Assembly: GCA_035564115.1 (NCBI GenBank)
Contig: DATMTN010000012.1
Span: 25,673 to 89,672 of the forward strand
Origin: Candidatus Microsaccharimonas sp.
Lineage (GTDB): Bacteria > Patescibacteriota > Saccharimonadia > Saccharimonadales > UBA4665
Direction: 5' to 3'
Length of the DNA stretch: 64,000 nucleotides
Shown: positions 154-9,236 of the stretch, piece by piece
Layout: each line of letters starts with the position of its first letter
How positions within the stretch are numbered: position 1 is the stretch's first letter
Notes under the pieces: generated by a model
Database searches by the model: none
What the model was told of the DNA's origin: nothing
The model's input: the letters and a program-made list of their open reading frames with translations, nothing else
Translations under genes and position numbers: made by a program

Positions 154-1845
154 CTATACCTCAGTTACCCGCAATATTTCAAGTAAGGTGGTCTCACCGT
201 TCAAGACTTTGTCGAGCCCATCGTCCAGCATGGTGTTCATACCATCGGCCACTGCCTGAGCCATCAGTGTGTCGCTGTCGGCACGTGCAGTGATAAGTTG
301 CGCCAGTTTGGGCGTGACTTCGAGCACTTCAAAGATACCAATCCGTCCCTGATAGCCGGTGTCATGGCAGGCTGTGCAGCCAGTCCCGTGATAGACACGG
401 ACTGCCGCCTTCTTGCCGAAGTGTTTGTCGACCATCTTGGCATCGAGGGCATTTAGGACGGCCGTTTGCTCACTGTTCCCAGCCCAGCCCTTGGTGGTGC
501 GCTTGAGCTCAATGCTAGCTTTACAGTGGCTACATATCTGGCGTACCAGACGTTGCGCCACAATTACATTCACAGTTGATGCGGCCAAGAACGGCTCGAT
601 ACGCATGTCGACCAGACGTGGCAAGGTGGTGACGGCGTCGTTGGTGTGCATGGTGGAGAGCACTAGGTGCCCAGTCATAGCAGCATTGACCGCAATATCT
701 GCCGTTTCTTCATCACGAATTTCACCCACGAACAGGACATCTGGGTCTTGCCGGAGCAGCGAGCGCAGGCCCTCGCTGAAAGTAAGGTTCGTCTTGGCAT
801 TGGCTTGAATCTGGTTGATGCCGTCCAGCTCATACTCGACTGGGTCCTCGATAGTGGCGATGTTACGGTCGCGGGTGTTGAGGATCTTCAGGATGGCGTA
901 CATAGTGGTTGTCTTGCCGGAGCCGGTTGGGCCAGTCGATAGAATCATGCCAAATGGTCGGCTAAAACCATCACGCACTTGCTGGAGGTCGTCTTGGCTC
1001 ATGCCCAAATCTGTCAGGCTGAACTGCCGGCTGTGCTTGGCGAGCAGTCGCATCACGACCTTTTCGCCCATTACATTCGGCACGATCGATACACGAACGG
1101 TTAGCTGTTCATCGTTAATGGTGACGTGTAGTCTGCCATCCTGGGCGCTCAAGTGCTCATCGGTGCGCAAGCGGGCTAAGACTTTTAAGCGAGTAACAAT
1201 TTGGTCGTGGATTTTCTTCGGGAAAAATACTTCGTCGTGTAGCACGCCATCGATACGAAAACGTACCACCGTTTGTTCGCGTAGTGGTTCGATATGCAAA
1301 TCTGAAGCACGAGCATCGTAGGCGTACTCAAAGAGCTTATCGACGAGCTTGGCAATGGGCTCATTGCTGTTCTGCGACTTGGCAAGTAGATCGTCGAAAA
1401 CTGCCTGTAGGTCTTGCTTGTAGAGGTGCAGTGCGGCAGCGATGCCCGGTTCAGTCGCAAACGATACTTTGTATTCAGCTGCACCAACTTTCTTGGCCAG
1501 CATGGCAAATAGGTCTTCAGCATCGGGCTGATTACTAGCAATATGTAAAGTGCCACTAGTGAACTCAAACGGTACGGTACGGTACTCGGCGGCAACTTGT
1601 TCGGGAATGAGCTTCAGCACCTGCTCGGAGATGTTAACTTTGCTTAACGATACGTAAGGCATCTGATAGTGGTAAGCAATAACCTTGCCAACCTCGTCTT
1701 CGTTCAGATAGTCGTGCTGAATCAGTGCCTCGTACAAGCTGGTCTGCTCGCGCTTGGCATCGACCTTCGCAGCCTCGAGTTTCGGTGCAGGTAAATACTT
1801 CAGATGCTCGAGCACCTTGGCTAGCTCATCATCGGTCAGTGTCAT
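154..1845 (-). CDS. pilB: Type IV pilus assembly ATPase PilB (GspE family)
   Basis: 563-aa ORF with a T2SSE_N-like N-terminus and Walker A GPTGSGKTT. The GspE core (VGEIRDEETA, LVLSTMHTNDA) and the C-terminal tetracysteine CSHC...CTAC are present. pilC follows directly. Confidence 0.9.
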   Translation of the reverse strand: MTLTDDELAKVLEHLKYLPAPKLEAAKVDAKREQTSLYEALIQHDYLNEDEVGKVIAYHYQMPYVSLSKVNISEQVLKLIPEQVAAEYRTVPFEFTSGTLHIASNQPDAEDLFAMLAKKVGAAEYKVSFATEPGIAAALHLYKQDLQAVFDDLLAKSQNSNEPIAKLVDKLFEYAYDARASDLHIEPLREQTVVRFRIDGVLHDEVFFPKKIHDQIVTRLKVLARLRTDEHLSAQDGRLHVTINDEQLTVRVSIVPNVMGEKVVMRLLAKHSRQFSLTDLGMSQDDLQQVRDGFSRPFGMILSTGPTGSGKTTTMYAILKILNTRDRNIATIEDPVEYELDGINQIQANAKTNLTFSEGLRSLLRQDPDVLFVGEIRDEETADIAVNAAMTGHLVLSTMHTNDAVTTLPRLVDMRIEPFLAASTVNVIVAQRLVRQICSHCKASIELKRTTKGWAGNSEQTAVLNALDAKMVDKHFGKKAAVRVYHGTGCTACHDTGYQGRIGIFEVLEVTPKLAQLITARADSDTLMAQAVADGMNTMLDDGLDKVLNGETTLLEILRVTEV

Positions 1846-1874
1846 AGTTGTACGGTTCCACCCTCTGTTGCTCC

Positions 1875-1894
1875 GGAGTCGTTATCACGACTCC
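1875..1894 (-). promoter_or_regulatory. Inverted repeat/hairpin in the predicted pilB 5' leader
   Basis: Perfect inverted repeat GGAGTCG-N6-CGACTCC. It lies between a minus-strand extended -10 (TGCTACAAT, plus-strand coordinates 1908-1916) and the pilB ATG at 1845. Confidence 0.3.
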
Positions 1895-1973
1895 ACGTAT
1901 CAGATGTATTGTAGCAATGCGCTCGTGCTTTTACCAATGTTTTTTGGCCCTCGAACTGCTATAGTAAGCGGTA

Positions 1974-2903
1974 ATGCTTCCGAAGCGTACGACCTCACTC
2001 ATTCGCACGAATGTTCTCGGTGTGACAATTTTGTCACTTGCAGCGCTTGTGCTCGGCTTAGTCGTCTTCTCAAAGGCCAGTGTTGTGTTCATCGTCGCGC
2101 TCATACTGGCCGAGTTTGTTTTGTTCATGCTTTTTTGGCAATCACTACGCACGAAGCATCGGGCATTCGAAGAGTCCAAGGACGAATTCGTCTCACTTGT
2201 TTCGCACCAGCTGCGGACACCGCTCACGTCGATGCGCTTATTCGTCGAGATGTTGCTCGATGGCCAGGTTGGGGAGCTCAATGCCAAACAGCACGAATAT
2301 TTGCGTATGGTAGAAATTTCGACTGGTCGGATGGTCGACTTAGTAAGTGATTTTTTGAACGCTTCAAAATTGGAGCTCGGACGCATGGAGATACGGCCAC
2401 AGCCAACACACCTAGAGGACCTCGTAGAAAGTATTGTGAAGAACCTGCGTCCCTTGGCTGATCAGCAGCGGCTAACAATTGTCTATGACAAACAAGAGCT
2501 TCCCGAGGTTGCCGTCGAACCAACACTCTACAGTCAGATTGTAAATAACCTCTTAAGTAATGCGTTGCACTACACGCCAGACGGCGGCACTATAACCGTT
2601 CGTTTAGTGCAGAATGCCAATGGCTATCAGCTAGATGTCACGGATACGGGCATCGGCATTCCGTTTGGGGCTCAGGCCGAACTGTTTAAGCGATTTTATC
2701 GTGCGGACAATGCCAAACATGTACTGGGTGAAGGCTCTGGACTGGGCTTGTATCTCATCAAGCGTATCGTTGACACTTGTGGCGGGCGGGTCTGGTACGA
2801 AAGTACCGAAGGCAAAGGGACTACGTTTCATGTTATAATTCCCTCAACAGGGATGGTTCCGACCACCACTAAACCAACCAAGCAAAAGGGCAGAGCTGCC
2901 TAA
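1974..2903 (+). CDS. Sensor histidine kinase with two N-terminal TM helices and almost no external loop (intramembrane-sensing type)
   Basis: H-box SLVSHQLRTPLTS, N-box LLSNALHYTP, G1 VTDTGIGIP and G2 GSGLGLYLIK are all present. The N-terminus is hydrophobic. Confidence 0.85.
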   Translation: MLPKRTTSLIRTNVLGVTILSLAALVLGLVVFSKASVVFIVALILAEFVLFMLFWQSLRTKHRAFEESKDEFVSLVSHQLRTPLTSMRLFVEMLLDGQVGELNAKQHEYLRMVEISTGRMVDLVSDFLNASKLELGRMEIRPQPTHLEDLVESIVKNLRPLADQQRLTIVYDKQELPEVAVEPTLYSQIVNNLLSNALHYTPDGGTITVRLVQNANGYQLDVTDTGIGIPFGAQAELFKRFYRADNAKHVLGEGSGLGLYLIKRIVDTCGGRVWYESTEGKGTTFHVIIPSTGMVPTTTKPTKQKGRAA

Positions 2904-2911
2904 GGGAGCGC

Positions 2912-3292
2912 ATGGAACCGCAGAATAAAAAGACGATTCTACTGGCTGATGACGAACAGTTTATCGTCATAGCCTACAAGGACGGCCTAGAGCGCGCAGG
3001 CTACAGTGTGGTGGTGGCGCACGATGGAGAGGAAGCGCTGCAGCAGGCTCAGGCTACTCATCCTGACCTAATCTTGCTTGATCTCATTATGCCTAAAATG
3101 AATGGTTTCGAGGTACTCCGCAGCCTTAAAGAGGATGCCAACTGTGCCACTATTCCAGTGGTTGTACTCACCAATCTGAGCCAGAGTAATGACGAAGAAG
3201 AGGCGCGGACAGCTGGCGCTGTGGATTTTGTGGTCAAGGCCGATATTTCCTTGAAGGACTTGTTGGCGCGGATTGAGCATATCTTCGCCTGA
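2912..3292 (+). CDS. Stand-alone response-regulator receiver (CheY-like, no output domain)
   Basis: 126 aa. It has the acidic pocket LLADDE, the phospho-acceptor context ILLDLIMPKMNG, and conserved T (VVLTN) and K (FVVKAD). Confidence 0.85.
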   Translation: MEPQNKKTILLADDEQFIVIAYKDGLERAGYSVVVAHDGEEALQQAQATHPDLILLDLIMPKMNGFEVLRSLKEDANCATIPVVVLTNLSQSNDEEEARTAGAVDFVVKADISLKDLLARIEHIFA

Positions 3293-3348
3293 TACGGACA
3301 CACTACTCTTTAAAATATAGTAAAATCCTGGTATAATATATATTACGT

Positions 3349-4305
3349 ATGACTATCAAACGACCGATTTTATCTGTTGTCGTTCCGCTCTATAACGAAG
3401 CGGCTGGTATTGAGACGTTTTATCAGGCTTTGCATGGGGTGCTCGAGGCGCTCCAGATCGAGTACGAGATCATCTTTTGTAACGATGGGAGCCGGGATGA
3501 TACGCTTGCCATTATTCGGCGGCTAGCAAAACAGGATCGAGCGGTTCGTTACCTGAGCCTGACACGTAACTTTGGTAAAGAGCTGGCCGTAACTGCCGGT
3601 ATCCATGCTGCCCGTGGGAAAGCGATACTCATGCTTGATGCCGATGGCCAGCACCCAGTAAAGCGTATTCCGGAATTTATAGAACATTGGCGAGCTGGCG
3701 CTAAGGTAGTTGTCGGCATACGTACAGCCAATCGCCATCAAGCTCTCATCAAGAAACTAGGCTCGAGTACGTTTTATCGTCTGTTTAATAAGCTTTCGCA
3801 CACTCGGCTTGTACCAGGCTCCACTGATTTCCGACTTATCGACGAAACCGTTCAGCATGATTTTATTCGGCTCACTGAGCGTAATCGTATTACGCGGGGG
3901 CTTATCGACTGGCTCGGCTACAAACAGGAGTATATCTATTTCGAGGCCAATGATCGGATTGCCGGTGAAGCAACCTACTCGCTCGGTGGTCTACTCAAGT
4001 TGTCGATAGACAGTGTCGTATCGTTGAGCGTGTCACCACTGTTCGTGGTGGCGTATATCGGCGCTGTAGTCCTGCCTCTTTCATTGCTCATCGGACTCGG
4101 AATGGTGGTAAATTTGCTGTTTGGTGACCCACTGGGCCTGCACGCGACGGGCGGAGCCTATGTGGCAGTGTTGACGCTCTGTCTGGTCGGTATCCTCATG
4201 GTCTCGCAGGGTGTTATCGGTCTCTACCTATCGCATATTCATGCCGAGTCACAGAATCGTCCTCTCTATCTTATCGATCGTGATAACTCATCTGACAAGT
4301 TATGA
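3349..4305 (+). CDS. Family 2 glycosyltransferase, polyprenyl-phosphate sugar synthase type (GtrB/ArnC/DPM1-like)
   Basis: N-terminal GT-A motifs VVVPLYNE, CNDGSRDDT and LDADGQH. Two C-terminal TM helices follow, as in GtrB/ArnC. Confidence 0.8.
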   Translation: MTIKRPILSVVVPLYNEAAGIETFYQALHGVLEALQIEYEIIFCNDGSRDDTLAIIRRLAKQDRAVRYLSLTRNFGKELAVTAGIHAARGKAILMLDADGQHPVKRIPEFIEHWRAGAKVVVGIRTANRHQALIKKLGSSTFYRLFNKLSHTRLVPGSTDFRLIDETVQHDFIRLTERNRITRGLIDWLGYKQEYIYFEANDRIAGEATYSLGGLLKLSIDSVVSLSVSPLFVVAYIGAVVLPLSLLIGLGMVVNLLFGDPLGLHATGGAYVAVLTLCLVGILMVSQGVIGLYLSHIHAESQNRPLYLIDRDNSSDKL

Positions 4306-4718
4306 GGCAACTGCTTGATCGCTATCTAAGCCCACAGATGCAACGCTATCTGGTGGTTGGTGGAGGCGTGTATTTACTGGAGCTAGGGGTGATACTTCTT
4401 GCGCAGGCCGCTGGTACCTCCTCGGTCTGGGCGGTTGGTATTGCCTTCTGGGTCGGACTGGTCGTCTCCTTCGTGCTACAAAAGTTTGTGACATTTGGCG
4501 ACAAACGGACGCACCACAAAGTCGTATTCAAGCAGGTTACGGCCGTCTCGGCACTGGTGTTGTGGAACTTCCTGTTCACCGTGCTGTGCACCAAACTTCT
4601 GCAACACGCCTTGCCGGCGGTGGTTATCCGGACCGCTGCGTTGCTAGTCACGACACTGTGGAATTTTTATCTGTATAAGACGAGCATTTTTCGTGAGCCG
4701 GAAAACCCGATATACTAG
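4302..4718 (+). CDS. GtrA-family small membrane protein
   Basis: 138 aa with four hydrophobic helices. Its start overlaps the GT2 stop (ATGA). The size and neighbourhood are typical of GtrA. Confidence 0.75.
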   Translation: MRQLLDRYLSPQMQRYLVVGGGVYLLELGVILLAQAAGTSSVWAVGIAFWVGLVVSFVLQKFVTFGDKRTHHKVVFKQVTAVSALVLWNFLFTVLCTKLLQHALPAVVIRTAALLVTTLWNFYLYKTSIFREPENPIY

Positions 4719-4760
4719 AGAAAAATTGGTCACACTGTAGGTTGGCCACCAAGGATAACA

Positions 4761-7415
4761 ATGCCGAAGACGACCGCTCAGGCCAAACAATCTAAACATG
4801 CACCCAAGCCTCAGCCACTTACGAGGCTTGAACGAGTTACAAATAACCGCTGGGTTGGCCGTATTTTTGTGACAGTCGCTTTGAGTGCAGCGCTAGCCAC
4901 GACTTGTCTATGGGCAATTCTCGGCGCCAGTCTTCAAAATAATAATGCCGATCAACTAGTCGACAGCTACTTGTTTGAAAACGCGCAGACGGTGCATGGG
5001 GCTAGCTTTCCAGGGCAACACACGTTTCTATTCAAGTGGCCATTGTTCTGGTTGCAACATGTGTTCGGGTATACACCAACTGGATTTATAGTCCTCACCA
5101 CGCTAGTCGTGTTAGTGACTGTCGGCGGGCTGGCATACCTGTTGTGGCGTATCGAGCGACGACCCTTTATGTTCGGTCTGCTGTGTTTGGCGTTAGCATC
5201 GGCCTTGTTGCTCGTGCCACCAGTACCATATCCGGGCGCCTTACTCCCAGTAAATATGGCCATGCTGACCACTCGTAACCTCGAGTACCTACTGTATATT
5301 CTTGGCTTGGTTCTAGTCGCCGGCATAACTCAGATACGTAGCAAACGATTCGTGGCCGGGGTAGGTTGCCTGGGCTTGTTATTCGCAAGTGATCGACTGT
5401 TTGGAACGCTCAGTCTGGGCGGTTCGGTAGTAGGGCTGGTTGCCTACGGCCTTACGAAGCGTCTTGAGCTTCGACGATTGGCATGGCGATGGCTTATAGC
5501 TTCAATGTTGGGGCTTATAGTCGCCTCAATATTTTTGGCGTTACTAGATAGCACTGGTGTGGTACATATCGTCGGTCAGTCGACAACAACCCCATACGGC
5601 CTGGTGCCGAGCTTGCGAAAGTTTGTGCTGGGTAGTATCTATGCGCTATTTGCGTTCTTTACTAATCTGGGCGCTAATCCGGCAGCAAGCGCCACAACCC
5701 TGGCTGCTGCGCCGCAAACAGTAAGAGCAGAGATTTTTAGTGTTGGGGGATTCGCTTACCTTATTAATGGATGTCTGTTGGTGGTAGGGCTGTGGGCCTG
5801 CTTACAAGTACTACGCACGAGCTTCAGCAATGTAGCAACCAAGCCCAAGAAGAAGCCGGTACTCCTGCCTCTAGGCACACGGCTCGCCCTAATGCTCATA
5901 GCCAGCACGGTTGTGGCGGCTGCGTCATATGTGGTTACGAATCACGAGTATCTCGTCGATAGTCGCTATCTGACAATTGAGTTTTTTGCAGTATTTGTAT
6001 CTATTGCCGTCTATAGCCGGACAAAACGACTGCAACCGCAACTCATCTTCGCGGCGAGTGCAGTATTGCTATGTGCGCTGCTCGGCGGCAGCTACCTTGT
6101 ATCGCACACAAACGCTAGGAATAGCCAGGCGTTGTCCACGCAACAAAGTCGAAATAGTCTGATTGTCGCTGCTTTAAAAGGGCACCCTACAGAAGTGGTC
6201 GTCGGGGACTACTGGCGCGTGTTGCCACTGAAACTGGCCGCTACCAATCACCAAAAAGTATTGCCACTTGCGAGCTGTACAACGCCGCGGAATGCACTAA
6301 CAAGTGATGCCTGGCAGCCCGACCTCCGATACCATAGTTTTACCTATGTACTGACTCTGGATGGGGCCACTAAAGATTTCACTGGCTGTACGCTCGAGCA
6401 AGTGATTCATGCATACGGTAGGCCGAATGCTAGTACCGTTATTGCGGGGACGAACGAGAAACCCCGGGAAGTCATTTTGTTCTACGATAAGGGCATCCGT
6501 CCCGCTGACAAACGGCCAGTTGTCCCGTCACTAACTGCCAGCTCCAGCATTCTTCACCCGATATCAATCAAAAATTTGAAGCATACGACCTGTCCGGGAC
6601 ATTCCACTATTATGCAAGTTGTAGCCCACGAAGACGACGATTTGTTATTTATGAACCCTGACTTGGAACATGCTATCCAAGCCGGCGACTGCGTGCGAAC
6701 TGTCTATGTTACGGCTGGCGATGCAGGGAGCGGTAAATTCTACTGGCTTGGACGAGAGCAGGGCTCACAAGCGGCCTATAGCGCATTTACGAACACTTCA
6801 AATCTTTGGCAAGAGCAGACTACTAAGATCGCTGATCACGAATTTGCCACAGTCAGCATGCCAGTTAGAGGTGGTCAGCTGTCGCTGATATTCTTGCACT
6901 TACCTGATGGTAGCCCAAGTGGGCAAGGCTTTGGAGCTTCCAATTTCGAGAGCCTTGCGAAGCTTAAGAATCAGTCTATCGGTACCATTCATTCGGTAGA
7001 CCATCAATCCTACTACAGTGCGCAAGAGCTCGTGGCGGCCCTCACCAATCTTATGGATGTGTACCAGCCTGATGAAGTGCGTACGCAGCTCCCGTATAGT
7101 GCAAACATGGTCTACGCCGATCATAGTGATCATACGGCTGTCGGAGGCTTCACTACGGTCGCCTATGAGGCTTATGCCACCAGGCACCAATCATCGAAGA
7201 TCGCTTATTATGCCGGTTACCCAATCCATGCCTACGAGTCGAACGTGACAGGCTCGGACTTAGACCGCAAAGAGCGAGCATTTTTTGCCTACAGTGACTT
7301 CGATAAGGCTGCCTGTGCTAATGCTGTTATGTGCGATAAAAGCGGTGTGTATGGTGCTTATCTTACGAGACAATATCGCGTAGATGACTTAGCAGACCCC
7401 CAATTACCCCTGTAA
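4761..7415 (+). CDS. Large polytopic membrane protein (GT-C-like, unverified) fused to a C-terminal PIG-L/LmbE-family deacetylase domain
   Basis: 884 aa, of which roughly the first 450 aa contain many TM helices. The C-terminal part carries PIG-L motifs MQVVAHEDDDLLFMNPD, VTAGDAG and YADHSDHTAVG. Confidence 0.65.
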   Translation: MPKTTAQAKQSKHAPKPQPLTRLERVTNNRWVGRIFVTVALSAALATTCLWAILGASLQNNNADQLVDSYLFENAQTVHGASFPGQHTFLFKWPLFWLQHVFGYTPTGFIVLTTLVVLVTVGGLAYLLWRIERRPFMFGLLCLALASALLLVPPVPYPGALLPVNMAMLTTRNLEYLLYILGLVLVAGITQIRSKRFVAGVGCLGLLFASDRLFGTLSLGGSVVGLVAYGLTKRLELRRLAWRWLIASMLGLIVASIFLALLDSTGVVHIVGQSTTTPYGLVPSLRKFVLGSIYALFAFFTNLGANPAASATTLAAAPQTVRAEIFSVGGFAYLINGCLLVVGLWACLQVLRTSFSNVATKPKKKPVLLPLGTRLALMLIASTVVAAASYVVTNHEYLVDSRYLTIEFFAVFVSIAVYSRTKRLQPQLIFAASAVLLCALLGGSYLVSHTNARNSQALSTQQSRNSLIVAALKGHPTEVVVGDYWRVLPLKLAATNHQKVLPLASCTTPRNALTSDAWQPDLRYHSFTYVLTLDGATKDFTGCTLEQVIHAYGRPNASTVIAGTNEKPREVILFYDKGIRPADKRPVVPSLTASSSILHPISIKNLKHTTCPGHSTIMQVVAHEDDDLLFMNPDLEHAIQAGDCVRTVYVTAGDAGSGKFYWLGREQGSQAAYSAFTNTSNLWQEQTTKIADHEFATVSMPVRGGQLSLIFLHLPDGSPSGQGFGASNFESLAKLKNQSIGTIHSVDHQSYYSAQELVAALTNLMDVYQPDEVRTQLPYSANMVYADHSDHTAVGGFTTVAYEAYATRHQSSKIAYYAGYPIHAYESNVTGSDLDRKERAFFAYSDFDKAACANAVMCDKSGVYGAYLTRQYRVDDLADPQLPL

Positions 7416-7603
7416 TATGTGAGTTTTTTGCTCAGGGGTGTATACTGATTAGCGTAAGCATGAAACAAACATGAAAGCTATCATTCTAAAGCACCCACGG
7501 TTTTTGCCGGCGCTGACACTTGTCCTCCTTATCGCGAGCTCGACGACTGCCATGGCAGCGTCATAGCTCCTTCCGATTCGCACTTATTTGCTATACTACT
7601 CAC

Positions 7604-7987
7604 ATGAAGATTCTGAGTATCTCCGGATTTGCATGCTATGTTCAGGACTTGGCTAAGACCAGCGAGTTCTACGAAAGGCTTGGCTTCCGTCCAGGTAAGC
7701 AAGAGGCTGGTCGTATGACGTGCTATGTAAACTGGTTCTCCGTTGATTTTGTTGAGGTTAGCGCCGAAGACAAGAGCGAATTTGCCAAAGAAGCCAACCT
7801 TGAGAATAAGGGGGCAGGACTTTTTATCAACATCAGTGTTGATACTGTTGACGAGTTCTATGAAGGTATTATCGCGAAGGGTTTCACGCCATCAAGTGAA
7901 CCCCGTGATTGGCCCTGGGGGCGTCGCGAGTTCGTGCTCCGTGATCCAGATGGCTACAAGTTAGTATTTTTCCAAAAGATTAAATAA
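7604..7987 (+). CDS. VOC-family (glyoxalase/bleomycin-resistance fold) protein
   Basis: Trimmed from track ORF 7520 (TTG) to the ATG at 7604, which lies 6 nt after TGCTATACT. The sequence is MKILSISGFACYVQDLAKTSEFYERLGF...RDPDGYKLVFFQ. Confidence 0.7.
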   Translation: MKILSISGFACYVQDLAKTSEFYERLGFRPGKQEAGRMTCYVNWFSVDFVEVSAEDKSEFAKEANLENKGAGLFINISVDTVDEFYEGIIAKGFTPSSEPRDWPWGRREFVLRDPDGYKLVFFQKIK

Positions 7988-8019
7988 TAGTACATATTGA
8001 TTCGAAGCAGAGCTCTCAC

Positions 8020-8057
8020 AAAAAAACAGCGGCCATTAGCGGCCACTGTTTCGTTTT
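8020..8057. terminator. Bidirectional rho-independent terminator between convergent genes
   Basis: An A-run precedes the stem ACAGCGGCC / GGCCACTGT (8 bp plus 1 mismatch, 6-nt loop), and a T-rich run follows. Confidence 0.6.
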
Positions 8058-8069
8058 AGCTTCTATCGA

Positions 8070-9236
8070 CTAGCGAGCGTGATGTACTGCACGCTTCTTG
8101 TGCTGTGTGTGACGGTGGCGGATGTGGAATATGTAGCCACCCAAGATAGCAGCACCGAACACTATCAGGATTGCACCTGGACCGGTGTTGGGTAGCGATG
8201 TGGCAGCGGCTTGAACGGCGACAGGTGTGGGTTGCTCACAATCAGCAGGGTTCTTACTGTACTTCGTGCTGTTAAAGGTATTGTCTTTAATAGTCACCAT
8301 AGCCTTGGTGGTGAGATTACAGACTGTCATGGTGCCCGGAGGCGGCGTACATGCTGCTAAGTTTTTGCTCTCAGTCTTGCTGTTGAAGGCATCATTTTGA
8401 ATGGTAATGATCTGTAGCTTGGTAAGGTCGCAGACTTTGATCTGACAATCAGCAGGGTTCTTACTGTACTTCGTGCTGTCAAAGGCTGTCTCCTTGATAG
8501 TTACCATGTGCTTTGTCGCCAGGTAACAGACGGTGATGTTGGGAACTGGCGGCGGTGGTGGCGGTGAGGTGGTGGGCGTGCCAGTGACGCTGTTGCCGCA
8601 AGGAGCCAAAATCGCAAACTGGAAGACGTTATTCTTCATGACGACATAGGCAGGAGCGGAGTGGTGCGACCACGAGCTGGCGAGCGATCGGACATAGAAT
8701 GTCGCGCCGCCGGAGGTTACTTGGCGATCACCGCTTGTCACGCGCTGACGGGCTTCAGTGAGCACATTTTTGGCTACGAGTTTGCCGCCGACTTTGACGG
8801 TGCCGTCGTCGTAGACTGTACCAGCAACGGCCGAGGTATCCATGCCCGAAATATCAGAGGAACTGATGCCCATGTGGGCATACACGGCTTGTATATAGTT
8901 GCTCGCGCGGTATTTCGCTTGCAAGTCATTGGTAGAGGAGACGCCACAGTTAATGATTGAGAAAGAGTCGCAGTCTTGACCGGTTGCGATGCTGAGGGCA
9001 CTGGTATGACCAATTTTACCAAGTGGGACAAGGGTGACAATACCCACAAACGCACCAACAACCATACCGTGAACGAATTTCGGTGTCAGATGATATAGGC
9101 GCTTCGCGTGATGACGCAGACCTTTTGGAGTGGTCGTCCTTTTGGCCAGCACAGGAGTCTTGCGCGTCTTTTTGGCGACACTTGCTCGGCTGTTCGAAAT
9201 TTTCCTTACAGGGGTGGTTTTCTTTTTCATATCCAA
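8070..9236 (-). CDS. LPXTG-anchored cell-surface protein with three Cys-x26-Cys repeats
   Basis: The C-terminus reads LPNTG, then a hydrophobic helix, then the basic tail HIRHRHTQHKKRAVHHAR, which is a sortase sorting signal. The N-terminus is basic with a TM/signal anchor. A PPPPPPP linker is followed by three repeat units. Confidence 0.75.
   Translation of the reverse strand: MDMKKKTTPVRKISNSRASVAKKTRKTPVLAKRTTTPKGLRHHAKRLYHLTPKFVHGMVVGAFVGIVTLVPLGKIGHTSALSIATGQDCDSFSIINCGVSSTNDLQAKYRASNYIQAVYAHMGISSSDISGMDTSAVAGTVYDDGTVKVGGKLVAKNVLTEARQRVTSGDRQVTSGGATFYVRSLASSWSHHSAPAYVVMKNNVFQFAILAPCGNSVTGTPTTSPPPPPPVPNITVCYLATKHMVTIKETAFDSTKYSKNPADCQIKVCDLTKLQIITIQNDAFNSKTESKNLAACTPPPGTMTVCNLTTKAMVTIKDNTFNSTKYSKNPADCEQPTPVAVQAAATSLPNTGPGAILIVFGAAILGGYIFHIRHRHTQHKKRAVHHAR
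8238..8530 (-). repeat. Three tandem coding repeats inside the LPXTG protein
   Basis: Each unit reads VC.L....(V/I)TI....F.S....SKN.A.C and is bounded by Cys codons at 8528/8447, 8432/8351 and 8321/8240. A 35-nt stretch is identical between units 1 and 3 (8445-8479 versus 8238-8272). Confidence 0.8.

Follow-up and report, generated by a model that had tools for sequence, protein, structure and literature searches.

In a 64,000-nt stretch of DNA from Candidatus Microsaccharimonas sp. (Saccharibacteria/TM7, within the Patescibacteria or Candidate Phyla Radiation, CPR; assembly GCA_035564115.1, contig DATMTN010000012.1, positions 25,673-89,672 of the forward strand), hereafter the window, we analyzed a cassette of three co-directional genes. 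With moderate confidence, we consider that it directs lipid-carrier-dependent envelope glycosylation of the Gtr/GacIJL/PpgS-Rv3632-Rv3779 type, in which a de-N-acetylase forms part of the transferase. Gene 1 encodes a family 2 glycosyltransferase (GT2), gene 2 a GtrA-family membrane protein, and gene 3 a large polypeptide that joins a GT-C-like membrane module to a PIG-L/LmbE-like domain. Somewhat more tentatively, at slightly less than even weight, we propose that gene 3 founds a new, Saccharibacteria-restricted GT-C family, in which one polypeptide (sometimes also carrying GtrA) transfers an N-acetylhexosamine (HexNAc) from polyprenyl phosphate and, on the membrane's outer face, removes its N-acetyl group.

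Predicted fold of the gene 3 membrane module

The AlphaFold2 model of full-length gene 3, based on an alignment of 64 full-length homologues that also served for the counts of invariant residues given below, had a mean predicted local distance difference test score (pLDDT) of 89.2 and a predicted template-modelling score (pTM) of 0.86; residues 1-612 modelled alone gave 89.8 and 0.89, respectively. The protein is made up of a Lys/Arg-rich N-terminus, 11-13 membrane helices (residues 30-447; 35-447 by hydropathy), a long helix leading into an alpha/beta domain, and the PIG-L domain. The initial annotation, made from the DNA letters and their translations, had correctly described the first ~450 residues as membrane-embedded and the C-terminus as PIG-L, but had missed the alpha/beta domain in between (residues 475-612).

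When the N-terminal module was compared with the PDB through Foldseek, the confident matches were exclusively GT-C glycosyltransferases, in keeping with the transferase-like fold that had been suspected for this region. The top match was ArnT (5ezm; probability 1.00, query-normalised TM-score 0.36), and the others were DPY19 (7zlg; 1.00 and 0.45), Pmt4 (9i5k; 1.00 and 0.38), AftA (8if8; 0.99 and 0.35), EmbA/B (7bvf; 0.97 and 0.33) and PglB (3rce, 5ogl and 6gxc; 0.96-0.98 and 0.38-0.39). A generic transporter or membrane anchor was also considered for this module and rejected, as MFS, CLC and SV2A structures scored probabilities of at most 0.54 and TM-scores of about 0.1 (≤0.15). Searching the PDB sequences with the profile of the whole gene 3 protein returned nothing relevant, and the PIG-L domain alone matched no solved member, meaning that only fold comparison ties the gene 3 domains to known structures. 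Judged by its sequence, the module appears to be a separate family, outside the described GT-C sequence families.

In the model, the first outside loop, between transmembrane (TM) helices 1 and 2, contains short juxtamembrane helices (residues 63-70, 75-78 and 90-102), a hallmark of GT-C enzymes. The loop opens with an invariant N62-A-D64-Q65, overlapping the acidic motif ADQLVDSYLFE (from residue 63) to which the initial annotation had drawn attention. Invariant residues of the module among the 64 homologues are N62, D64, Q65, H87, K92, R134, R172, N173, E175, D211, H395, D400, R402 and Y403; of these, N62, D64, H87, K92, R172, N173, E175, D211, R402 and Y403 are also kept in 15 relatives that lack the PIG-L domain, so that N62 and D64, the latter being an acidic residue of the loop, are conserved in both sets. 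Asp64 (codon 4950-4952), at the very start of the modelled loop, is the likely candidate for the catalytic residue. Because the invariant residues persist in the PIG-L-less forms, one of which still lies beside GT2 and GtrA genes, the membrane module seems to have a conserved function of its own, in a GT2/GtrA context.

Middle domain and PIG-L domain

The alpha/beta domain that follows the membrane module in the model spans ~135 residues, of which 475-575 form the compact part and the remainder a linker. It is a separate, conserved unit with an invariant C506 and C543 and a GDYWRV motif, and its position matches that of the C-terminal periplasmic domains of GT-C enzymes. The domain is kept, together with the C506/C543 pair, in the stand-alone PIG-L-less forms of about 550-570 residues.

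The sole Pfam match in gene 3 was PF02585, at residues 619-801 (E 8.5e-13; 49.4 bits against a cut-off of 28.2), where the motifs VVAHEDDDLLF (residue 620), VTAGDAG (650) and YADHSDH (785) are found. Foldseek related this domain, with probability 1.00, to the teicoplanin deacetylase Orf2*, LnmX, MshB, diacetylchitobiose deacetylases (Dac) and BshB, the target-normalised TM-scores against 3dff, 5bmo, 1q74, 4xm1, 2ixd and 6p2t being 0.44-0.63. Enzymes of the LmbE-like superfamily carry an HXD1D2+H signature, with D2 and both His as metal ligands and D1 as general base (PMC4101496). The corresponding segments of gene 3 are H623-E-D625-D626 (encoded at 6627-6638) and H788-S-D-H791 (7122-7133), and the invariant residues of the domain are A622, H623, D625, D626, D627, T651, G653, D654, G656, D787, H788, D790 and H791. 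Hence the metal and base residues that the initial annotation had expected to align (H623, D625, D626, H788 and H791) do so without exception and fit the signature (PMC4101496). From motif and fold, we infer that the C-terminus of gene 3 is a metal-dependent de-N-acetylase domain.

Relative to the Pfam profile, the domain contains an insertion of ~55 residues (683-735, window positions about 6807-6965), comprising three beta strands and an invariant L714-P-D-G, G721, G723 and F724. By analogy with the capping loop of the teicoplanin deacetylases (PMC4101496), the insertion may be a substrate-binding lid.

Membrane topology

The N-terminus of gene 3 has a net charge of +8.9 over the 64 homologues, and the short loops at residues 132-134, 188-194, 232-234, 356-370 and 421-425 are net positive as well. 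The loops bearing the invariant polar residues (62-105, 151-172, 266-329 and 393-405) range from neutral to acidic. Acidic, too, is the C-terminal part, in which the six invariant cysteines (C506, C543, C611, C644, C852 and C858) are all located; C506-C543, C611-C644 and C852-C858 would be the expected disulfide pairs. We therefore predict that the N-terminus lies inside and the last 437 residues outside, the general arrangement of GT-C enzymes. On which side the PIG-L domain lies had been left open by the initial annotation; charge distribution, GT-C architecture and cysteines all place the deacetylase outside. The N-in topology agrees with the fusion of GtrA to the N-terminus of gene 3 in some homologues, given that the ends of GtrA are presumably cytoplasmic.

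According to this prediction, the PIG-L domain would be active at the outer side of the membrane, an unusual place for the LmbE-like family, since to our knowledge the characterized enzymes act on the cytoplasmic side. The words 'periplasm' and 'extracellular' do not occur in a review of the family (PMC4101496).

Genes 1 and 2, gene layout and promoter

The features of the locus are collected in Table 1. All three cassette genes are found as open reading frames exactly where the initial annotation had placed them, and its assignment of genes 1 and 2 to the GT2 and GtrA families was upheld by profile searches, in which PF00535 and PF04138, like PF02585 for gene 3, exceeded the Pfam gathering scores.

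Table 1. Features of the cassette and of its surroundings (window positions).
Feature	Position	Strand	Description
PilB-like type IV pilus ATPase	154-1845	-	separated from the cassette by the kinase/receiver pair
Histidine kinase	1974-2903	+	short, membrane, HisKA + HATPase_c
Response regulator	2912-3292	+	126 residues, receiver domain only
Promoter-like site	3309-3337	+	-35 TTTAAA, 17-nt spacer, extended -10 TGGTATAAT at 3329-3337
Gene 1	3349-4305	+	318 residues, GT2 with two C-terminal TM helices
Gene 2	4302-4718	+	138 residues, GtrA-family small membrane protein
Gene 3	4761-7415	+	884 residues, GT-C-like membrane module + alpha/beta domain + PIG-L/LmbE domain
Gene 3, residues 1-474	4761-6182	+	basic N-terminus, GT-C-like polytopic module (residues 30-447), long helix extension
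Gene 3, residues 475-612	6183-6596	+	conserved alpha/beta domain and linker, predicted extracytoplasmic
Gene 3, residues 613-884 and stop	6597-7415	+	PIG-L/LmbE-like de-N-acetylase domain, predicted extracytoplasmic
Glyoxalase/bleomycin-resistance-family gene (PF00903)	7520-7987	+	mechanical open reading frame from TTG 7520, 155 residues
Surface protein	8070-9236	-	388 residues, no Pfam match, LPNTG sortase signal at residue 348, hydrophobic stretch, basic tail

Gene 1 matched PF00535 with E 7.9e-30 (104 bits; cut-off 23.3), and hydropathy located its two C-terminal TM helices at residues 231-249 and 272-290. This is the architecture of a polyprenyl-phosphate sugar synthase, namely a GT-A fold followed by two TM helices. 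The best NCBIfam match was PgfS (218 bits over residues 8-313; equivalog cut-off 500), and scores were also obtained for ArnC (123 bits over residues 8-311; cut-off 529) and, with partial coverage, PpgS (42 bits; cut-off 370). All three being below their equivalog cut-offs, orthology of gene 1 to PgfS, ArnC or PpgS is not indicated. Gene 2, a small protein whose hydrophobic segments, as found by hydropathy, correspond to about four TM helices, matched PF04138 over the full profile (1-117 of 117; E 6.5e-12; 46 bits, cut-off 26.1).

The GT2 stop codon (TGA 4303-4305) shares bases with the GtrA start codon (ATG 4302-4304), which confirms the ATGA overlap (4302-4305) reported initially, and an AAGGA ribosome-binding site lies 8 nt upstream of the gene 3 ATG. 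The three genes appear to be co-transcribed. Ahead of them, TGGTATAAT and TTTAAA make up the top promoter-like site in the region 1800-8200 (10/12 matches plus the TG). Promoter-like sites as a class were not enriched in that scan (9, versus 6.5 expected), and it is because of comparative data that we take the extended -10 element as real: 36 of 51 related loci have the motif TGnTA[TAC]A[CA]T beginning 9-43 nt (mostly 17-26) 5' of the GT2 start codon, as against a background occurrence in just 1.3% of 90-nt windows. The cassette therefore has its own promoter, as had been claimed from the window alone. Since the GT2 ATG starts 11 nt past the end of the extended -10, the mRNA is probably leaderless, or nearly so. 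The cassette as a whole is not a product of chance, given the conservation of this motif and the hundreds of full-length homologues of gene 3 with E = 0.

The same motif occurs 22 times in the window, versus 9.6 ± 3.2 times in shuffled sequences. Eight copies on the forward strand (3329, 7589, 15082, 18098, 22849, 41087, 44707 and 47996) end 5-11 nt before the ATG of a long open reading frame, from which leaderless or near-leaderless mRNAs look common in this genome.

Distribution, synteny and fusion variants

With one genome scanned per species, relatives of gene 3 turned up in at least 463 genomes, and the 80 records listed were nearly all from Saccharibacteria/Saccharimonadales. One of them, a 4.8-kb contig (L037, DATKKU010000023.1), is filed under a 'Candidatus Binatia' metagenome-assembled genome, probably through a binning error, considering the size of the contig. 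An exhaustive search of 1.84 billion representative proteins with a profile of residues 1-612 yielded only 375 clusters at 50% identity; the N-terminal family is small and lineage-restricted.

Gene order was assessed on the 70 loci whose upstream sequence reached 1.6 kb or more, considering same-strand genes directly upstream of gene 3. Both GT2 and GtrA were found in 38 loci, GT2 only in 12, GtrA only in 11 and neither in 9. At least one of the two partners therefore precedes gene 3 in 61 of the 70 loci, so the conserved synteny anticipated in the initial annotation holds in the main, except that GT2 is not always present in cis. The two closest relatives illustrate the variation: in L082 (66% identity) the order is LPG_synthase_TM, GT2, GtrA, gene 3 and glyoxalase, without kinase or receiver, whereas in L083 (67% identity) it is PilB, kinase, receiver, GtrA, gene 3 and glyoxalase, without GT2. 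Where the locus has no GT2, the donor may be made elsewhere or shared. The LPG_synthase_TM gene of L082 (PF03706, an MprF-like membrane domain; 5385-6341) lies directly upstream of GT2 on the same strand, and its product could be another lipid-handling partner.

The commonest form of the gene 3 protein is the fusion of about 870 residues. Longer forms of ~1000 residues have the architecture GtrA::GT-C::PIG-L (P0150, P0217 and P0243; also P0040, P0064 and P0095), and one record is GtrA::GT-C without PIG-L (P0265). The PIG-L-less forms of ~550-570 residues, 26-37% identical to the module of the window, end after the middle domain; those of L081, L084 and L085 are complete genes. Because such forms exist, and in L084 still adjoin a GT2 gene and a GtrA gene, the core system would consist of GT2, GtrA and GT-C, with PIG-L as an added module. 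As for GtrA, its natural fusions with the GT-C module argue that it physically works with the gene 3 protein. An activity at the transferase fits a role in flipping or hand-off of the sugar, and a stimulation of the synthase, as shown for GacJ (10.1101/180810), would also be compatible.

The surroundings of the PIG-L-less genes offer some further observations. In L084 (2210-5555 and 7726-9803), the gene has as neighbors a GT2 gene, a GtrA gene on the opposite strand, an Acyl_transf_3 gene and one for a sugar nucleotidyltransferase, and it is followed by two unannotated proteins of 184 and 508 residues. In L085, a sortase gene (4212-4808) adjoins another PIG-L-less form.

Neighboring genes

The initial annotation had speculated that the adjacent kinase/receiver pair might govern the cassette in the manner of PmrAB. 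This link found no backing: the response regulator lacks an output domain, the cassette is served by a conserved promoter motif of its own, and the pair does not consistently accompany the cassette, being present beside it in L083 and absent in L082. Of the 80 loci, 11 had a strong kinase match (at least ~130 bits) in their flanks, in most cases downstream or encoded on the other strand, and in the majority of related loci the pair is missing or lies in the opposite orientation. That the receiver acts by interacting with other proteins, possibly those of the pilus system, seems no less plausible than a link to the cassette. The PilB-kinase-receiver-cassette arrangement of the window recurs in L083.

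In both L082 and L083, a glyoxalase gene follows the cassette, as it does here. The homologues measure 127 residues, and in the window TGCTATACT (7589-7597) precedes an ATG at 7605; for these two reasons, the true start of the gene is probably 7605.

In the LPNTG protein farther downstream, a poly-Pro/Thr/Ser linker occurs together with three ~35-residue repeats that contain Cys, and L001 encodes a homologue, 35% identical, immediately 3' of its cassette. The protein might serve as a surface acceptor for the sugar.

Proposed mechanism and alternatives

In the scheme that we propose, gene 1 would move a HexNAc from a nucleotide sugar onto polyprenyl (undecaprenyl) phosphate at the cytoplasmic face, and gene 2 would help this synthesis and/or bring the lipid-linked sugar through the membrane for delivery to the transferase. 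At the outer face, the GT-C-like module of gene 3 would put the sugar on an envelope acceptor, with Asp64 as the likely catalytic residue, and the tethered PIG-L domain would strip the N-acetyl group, either from the flipped lipid-linked donor or from the newly attached sugar. Whichever the order, the outcome would be a free-amine (cationic) hexosamine (HexN) on the cell surface. We infer that the sugar is a HexNAc because every characterized LmbE-like enzyme acts on a substrate containing N-acetylglucosamine (GlcNAc) (PMC4101496); the weak similarity of gene 1 to PgfS is a minor hint in the same direction. A polyprenyl-phosphate-linked donor is suggested by the gene neighborhood (the 61 of 70 loci, and the PIG-L-less form of L084). 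The lipid carrier itself is presumed; deacetylation may precede or follow transfer, and a wall polymer, a lipid or a surface protein could be the acceptor. The proposed coupling of HexNAc-to-HexN conversion with transfer, first put forward in the initial annotation, draws support from the fold, the acidic loop, the metal residues and the synteny; none of the refuting conditions named there (lack of a GT-C-like fold or acidic loop, unaligned metal ligands, loss of synteny) was borne out. That annotation knew of no characterized example of the fusion; likewise, we found no description of it in publications on Saccharibacteria/Patescibacteria, PIG-L/LmbE, GtrA and GT-C fusions, including a transposon-sequencing (Tn-seq) paper on Saccharibacteria.

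Several observations weigh against this interpretation. The modelled match to GT-C enzymes is modest (Foldseek E 1e-3 to 8e-2, TM-score 0.33-0.45, root-mean-square deviation 10-17 Å) and would be one of fold rather than of family. Residues 1-450, for which a search against Pfam GT-C families had been suggested, had no match even at E up to 10, and neither residues 1-612 nor nine stand-alone homologues matched anything in Pfam or NCBIfam at that same threshold. GT2 is missing from 20 of the 70 related loci, including that of the closest relative, L083, and the below-cut-off scores for PgfS and ArnC appear insufficient to fix the sugar specificity of gene 1. As to the deacetylase, the D626-H791 spacing is 165 residues, due to the conserved insertion in the PIG-L domain, as compared with 97-148 residues between ligands 2 and 3 in characterized members (PMC4101496). 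Moreover, the outside location of this domain is a prediction, and the PIG-L-less forms show that a deacetylase is not an inherent part of the transferase.

Among other explanations, one differs from ours in the acceptor alone, which would be protein: like PgfS/PgfM1 and GtrB/PgtC2 of streptococci, the GT-C module would O-glycosylate Ser/Thr/Pro-rich surface or membrane proteins, with PIG-L then trimming HexNAc to HexN. This is unlikely, albeit credible, in our estimation. PgfS, the best NCBIfam match of gene 1, is a synthase for protein glycosylation with N-acetylgalactosamine (GalNAc) (PMC12041528), but its score of 218 bits is far under the equivalog cut-off of 500, and PgfM1 and PgtC2 are YfhO-family proteins, whereas gene 3 has no Pfam GT-C match at all (E up to 10). 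The LPNTG repeat protein with its Pro/Thr/Ser linker is encoded ~650 bp downstream of the cassette, with a homologue by the cassette of L001, and the stand-alone GT-C form of L085 has a sortase gene next to it; the LPNTG gene, however, is on the opposite strand, and such linkage is seen in few loci only.

Alternatively, gene 3 could hold two independent activities: the membrane module would transfer a sugar provided by GT2 and GtrA and serve partly as an anchor, and PIG-L would act on an unrelated extracellular GlcNAc substrate, either the cell's own peptidoglycan or lipid II, so as to evade lysozyme, or, for scavenging, chito-oligosaccharides or fragments of the host wall. The PIG-L-less GT-C forms beside GT2/GtrA indicate that the activities are separable, and diacetylchitobiose deacetylase, an LmbE-like enzyme, was among the structural matches. 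We nevertheless regard this as improbable, as the fusion is stable and of constant architecture in at least 463 species genomes and the full-length pTM of 0.86 suggests a fixed packing of the domains instead of a loose tether; furthermore, the wall-sugar de-N-acetylases PgdA and PplD are CE4 enzymes, not LmbE-like. More doubtful still, and in our view highly improbable, is that the membrane module is a GT-C-derived lipid-binding platform, presenting a flipped polyprenyl-phosphate-linked HexNAc to the PIG-L domain, and that the protein only makes polyprenyl-phosphate-linked HexN for a different, unlinked transferase. Such a role would suit the moderate similarity to the GT-C fold and the lack of matches to GT-C sequence families, and deacetylation in the galactosamine (GalN) pathway of the Corynebacteriales is thought to use the lipid-linked sugar (PMC9671496). 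Against it, the polar and charged outside-loop residues N62, D64, H87, K92, R172, N173, E175, D211, R402 and Y403 are invariant even in forms with no PIG-L domain to serve, which argues for catalysis by the module.

Implications

Very little is known of envelope chemistry in Saccharibacteria and other CPR bacteria, whose way of life is attachment to a host bacterium. If glycosylation by a transferase with a built-in de-N-acetylase is indeed what the cassette accomplishes, its presence in at least 463 species-level genomes predicts a specific surface modification, a free-amine hexosamine, and gene 3 would serve these ultrasmall epibionts as a self-contained 'cationic sugar installer' of the envelope. 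It would then be a possible determinant of surface charge, of resistance to cationic peptides or lysozyme, and of attachment to host bacteria. The work would also add a GT-C family invisible to sequence profiles, for a protein that public annotation, including an NCBI record 100% identical to gene 3, names simply 'PIG-L family deacetylase', and would place an LmbE-like deacetylase outside the cell; if true, this would be the first extracytoplasmic deacetylase of the LmbE/PIG-L type. The series GtrA::GT-C::PIG-L, GtrA::GT-C and GT-C alone provides genetic evidence that GtrA-type proteins may serve the GT-C transferase and not just the GT2 synthase. Lastly, the cassette offers a working model for the unidentified deacetylation step of the mycobacterial/corynebacterial GalN pathway.

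Comparison with known systems

By the equivalog cut-offs, none of the systems compared below appears orthologous to the cassette. The same gene order and the same three roles, those of a GT2 ending in TM helices, of a GtrA-family protein and of a polytopic transferase, are found in GtrA/GtrB/GtrX (O-antigen glucosylation) and CsbB/GtcA/YfhO (teichoic acid), but these handle neutral hexoses or GlcNAc with no further processing, employ other transferase families and have no PIG-L. The streptococcal GacI/GacJ/GacL, which add the GlcNAc side chain of the group A carbohydrate, and PgfS/PgfM1, which add GalNAc in protein O-glycosylation, likewise set a GT2 synthase of undecaprenyl-phosphate-linked HexNAc beside a stimulating small membrane partner, and a GT-C enzyme (GacL or PgfM1) transfers the sugar outside the cell (10.1101/180810; PMC12041528). 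In those systems the sugar stays N-acetylated and the transferase is devoid of a deacetylase; PgfM1 belongs to the YfhO family, unlike gene 3, which matches no Pfam GT-C family; and here some forms carry the small partner on the GT-C polypeptide instead of linking it to GT2.

The ArnC/ArnD/ArnEF/ArnT system, which installs 4-amino-4-deoxy-L-arabinose (L-Ara4N) on lipid A, resembles the cassette in that a GT2 makes an N-acylated amino sugar linked to undecaprenyl phosphate, which is deacylated and finally, as a cationic sugar, installed outside by the GT-C enzyme ArnT. ArnD is a separate CE4-type deformylase that acts at the cytoplasmic face, before flipping, whereas the deacetylase considered here is LmbE-like, predicted to be on the outer face and fused to the transferase. 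In addition, gene 1 reaches 123 bits with ArnC against a cut-off of 529, ArnT has no sequence match, and the neighborhood contains no DNA-binding regulator of the PmrA type. With the LmbE-like/PIG-L enzymes (PIG-L, MshB, BshB, Orf2* and diacetylchitobiose deacetylase), the C-terminus of gene 3 shares fold, Pfam domain and HXD1D2+H motif; it differs in its insertion (hence the 165-residue spacing), in its predicted location outside, with disulfides, in its fusion to a GT-C module, and in having no sequence-level match to the solved members.

Closest in logic is the PpgS/Rv3632/Rv3779 system, responsible for the GalN of arabinogalactan in Mycobacterium and Corynebacterium, where a GT2 makes polyprenyl-phosphate-linked HexNAc with a small membrane helper, and the sugar, exposed outside, is de-N-acetylated and moved by the GT-C enzyme Rv3779, giving a free-amine wall sugar (PMC9671496). 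The two systems are not orthologous, the PpgS model scoring 42 bits over part of gene 1 against a cut-off of 370, and the host of the cassette is a monoderm CPR bacterium without arabinogalactan. PpgS and Rv3632 make polyprenyl-phosphate-linked GalNAc, and the deacetylase acting on this lipid-linked sugar is still unidentified (PMC9671496), as is the flippase; in the Saccharibacteria cassette, by contrast, a candidate deacetylase is found fused to the transferase.

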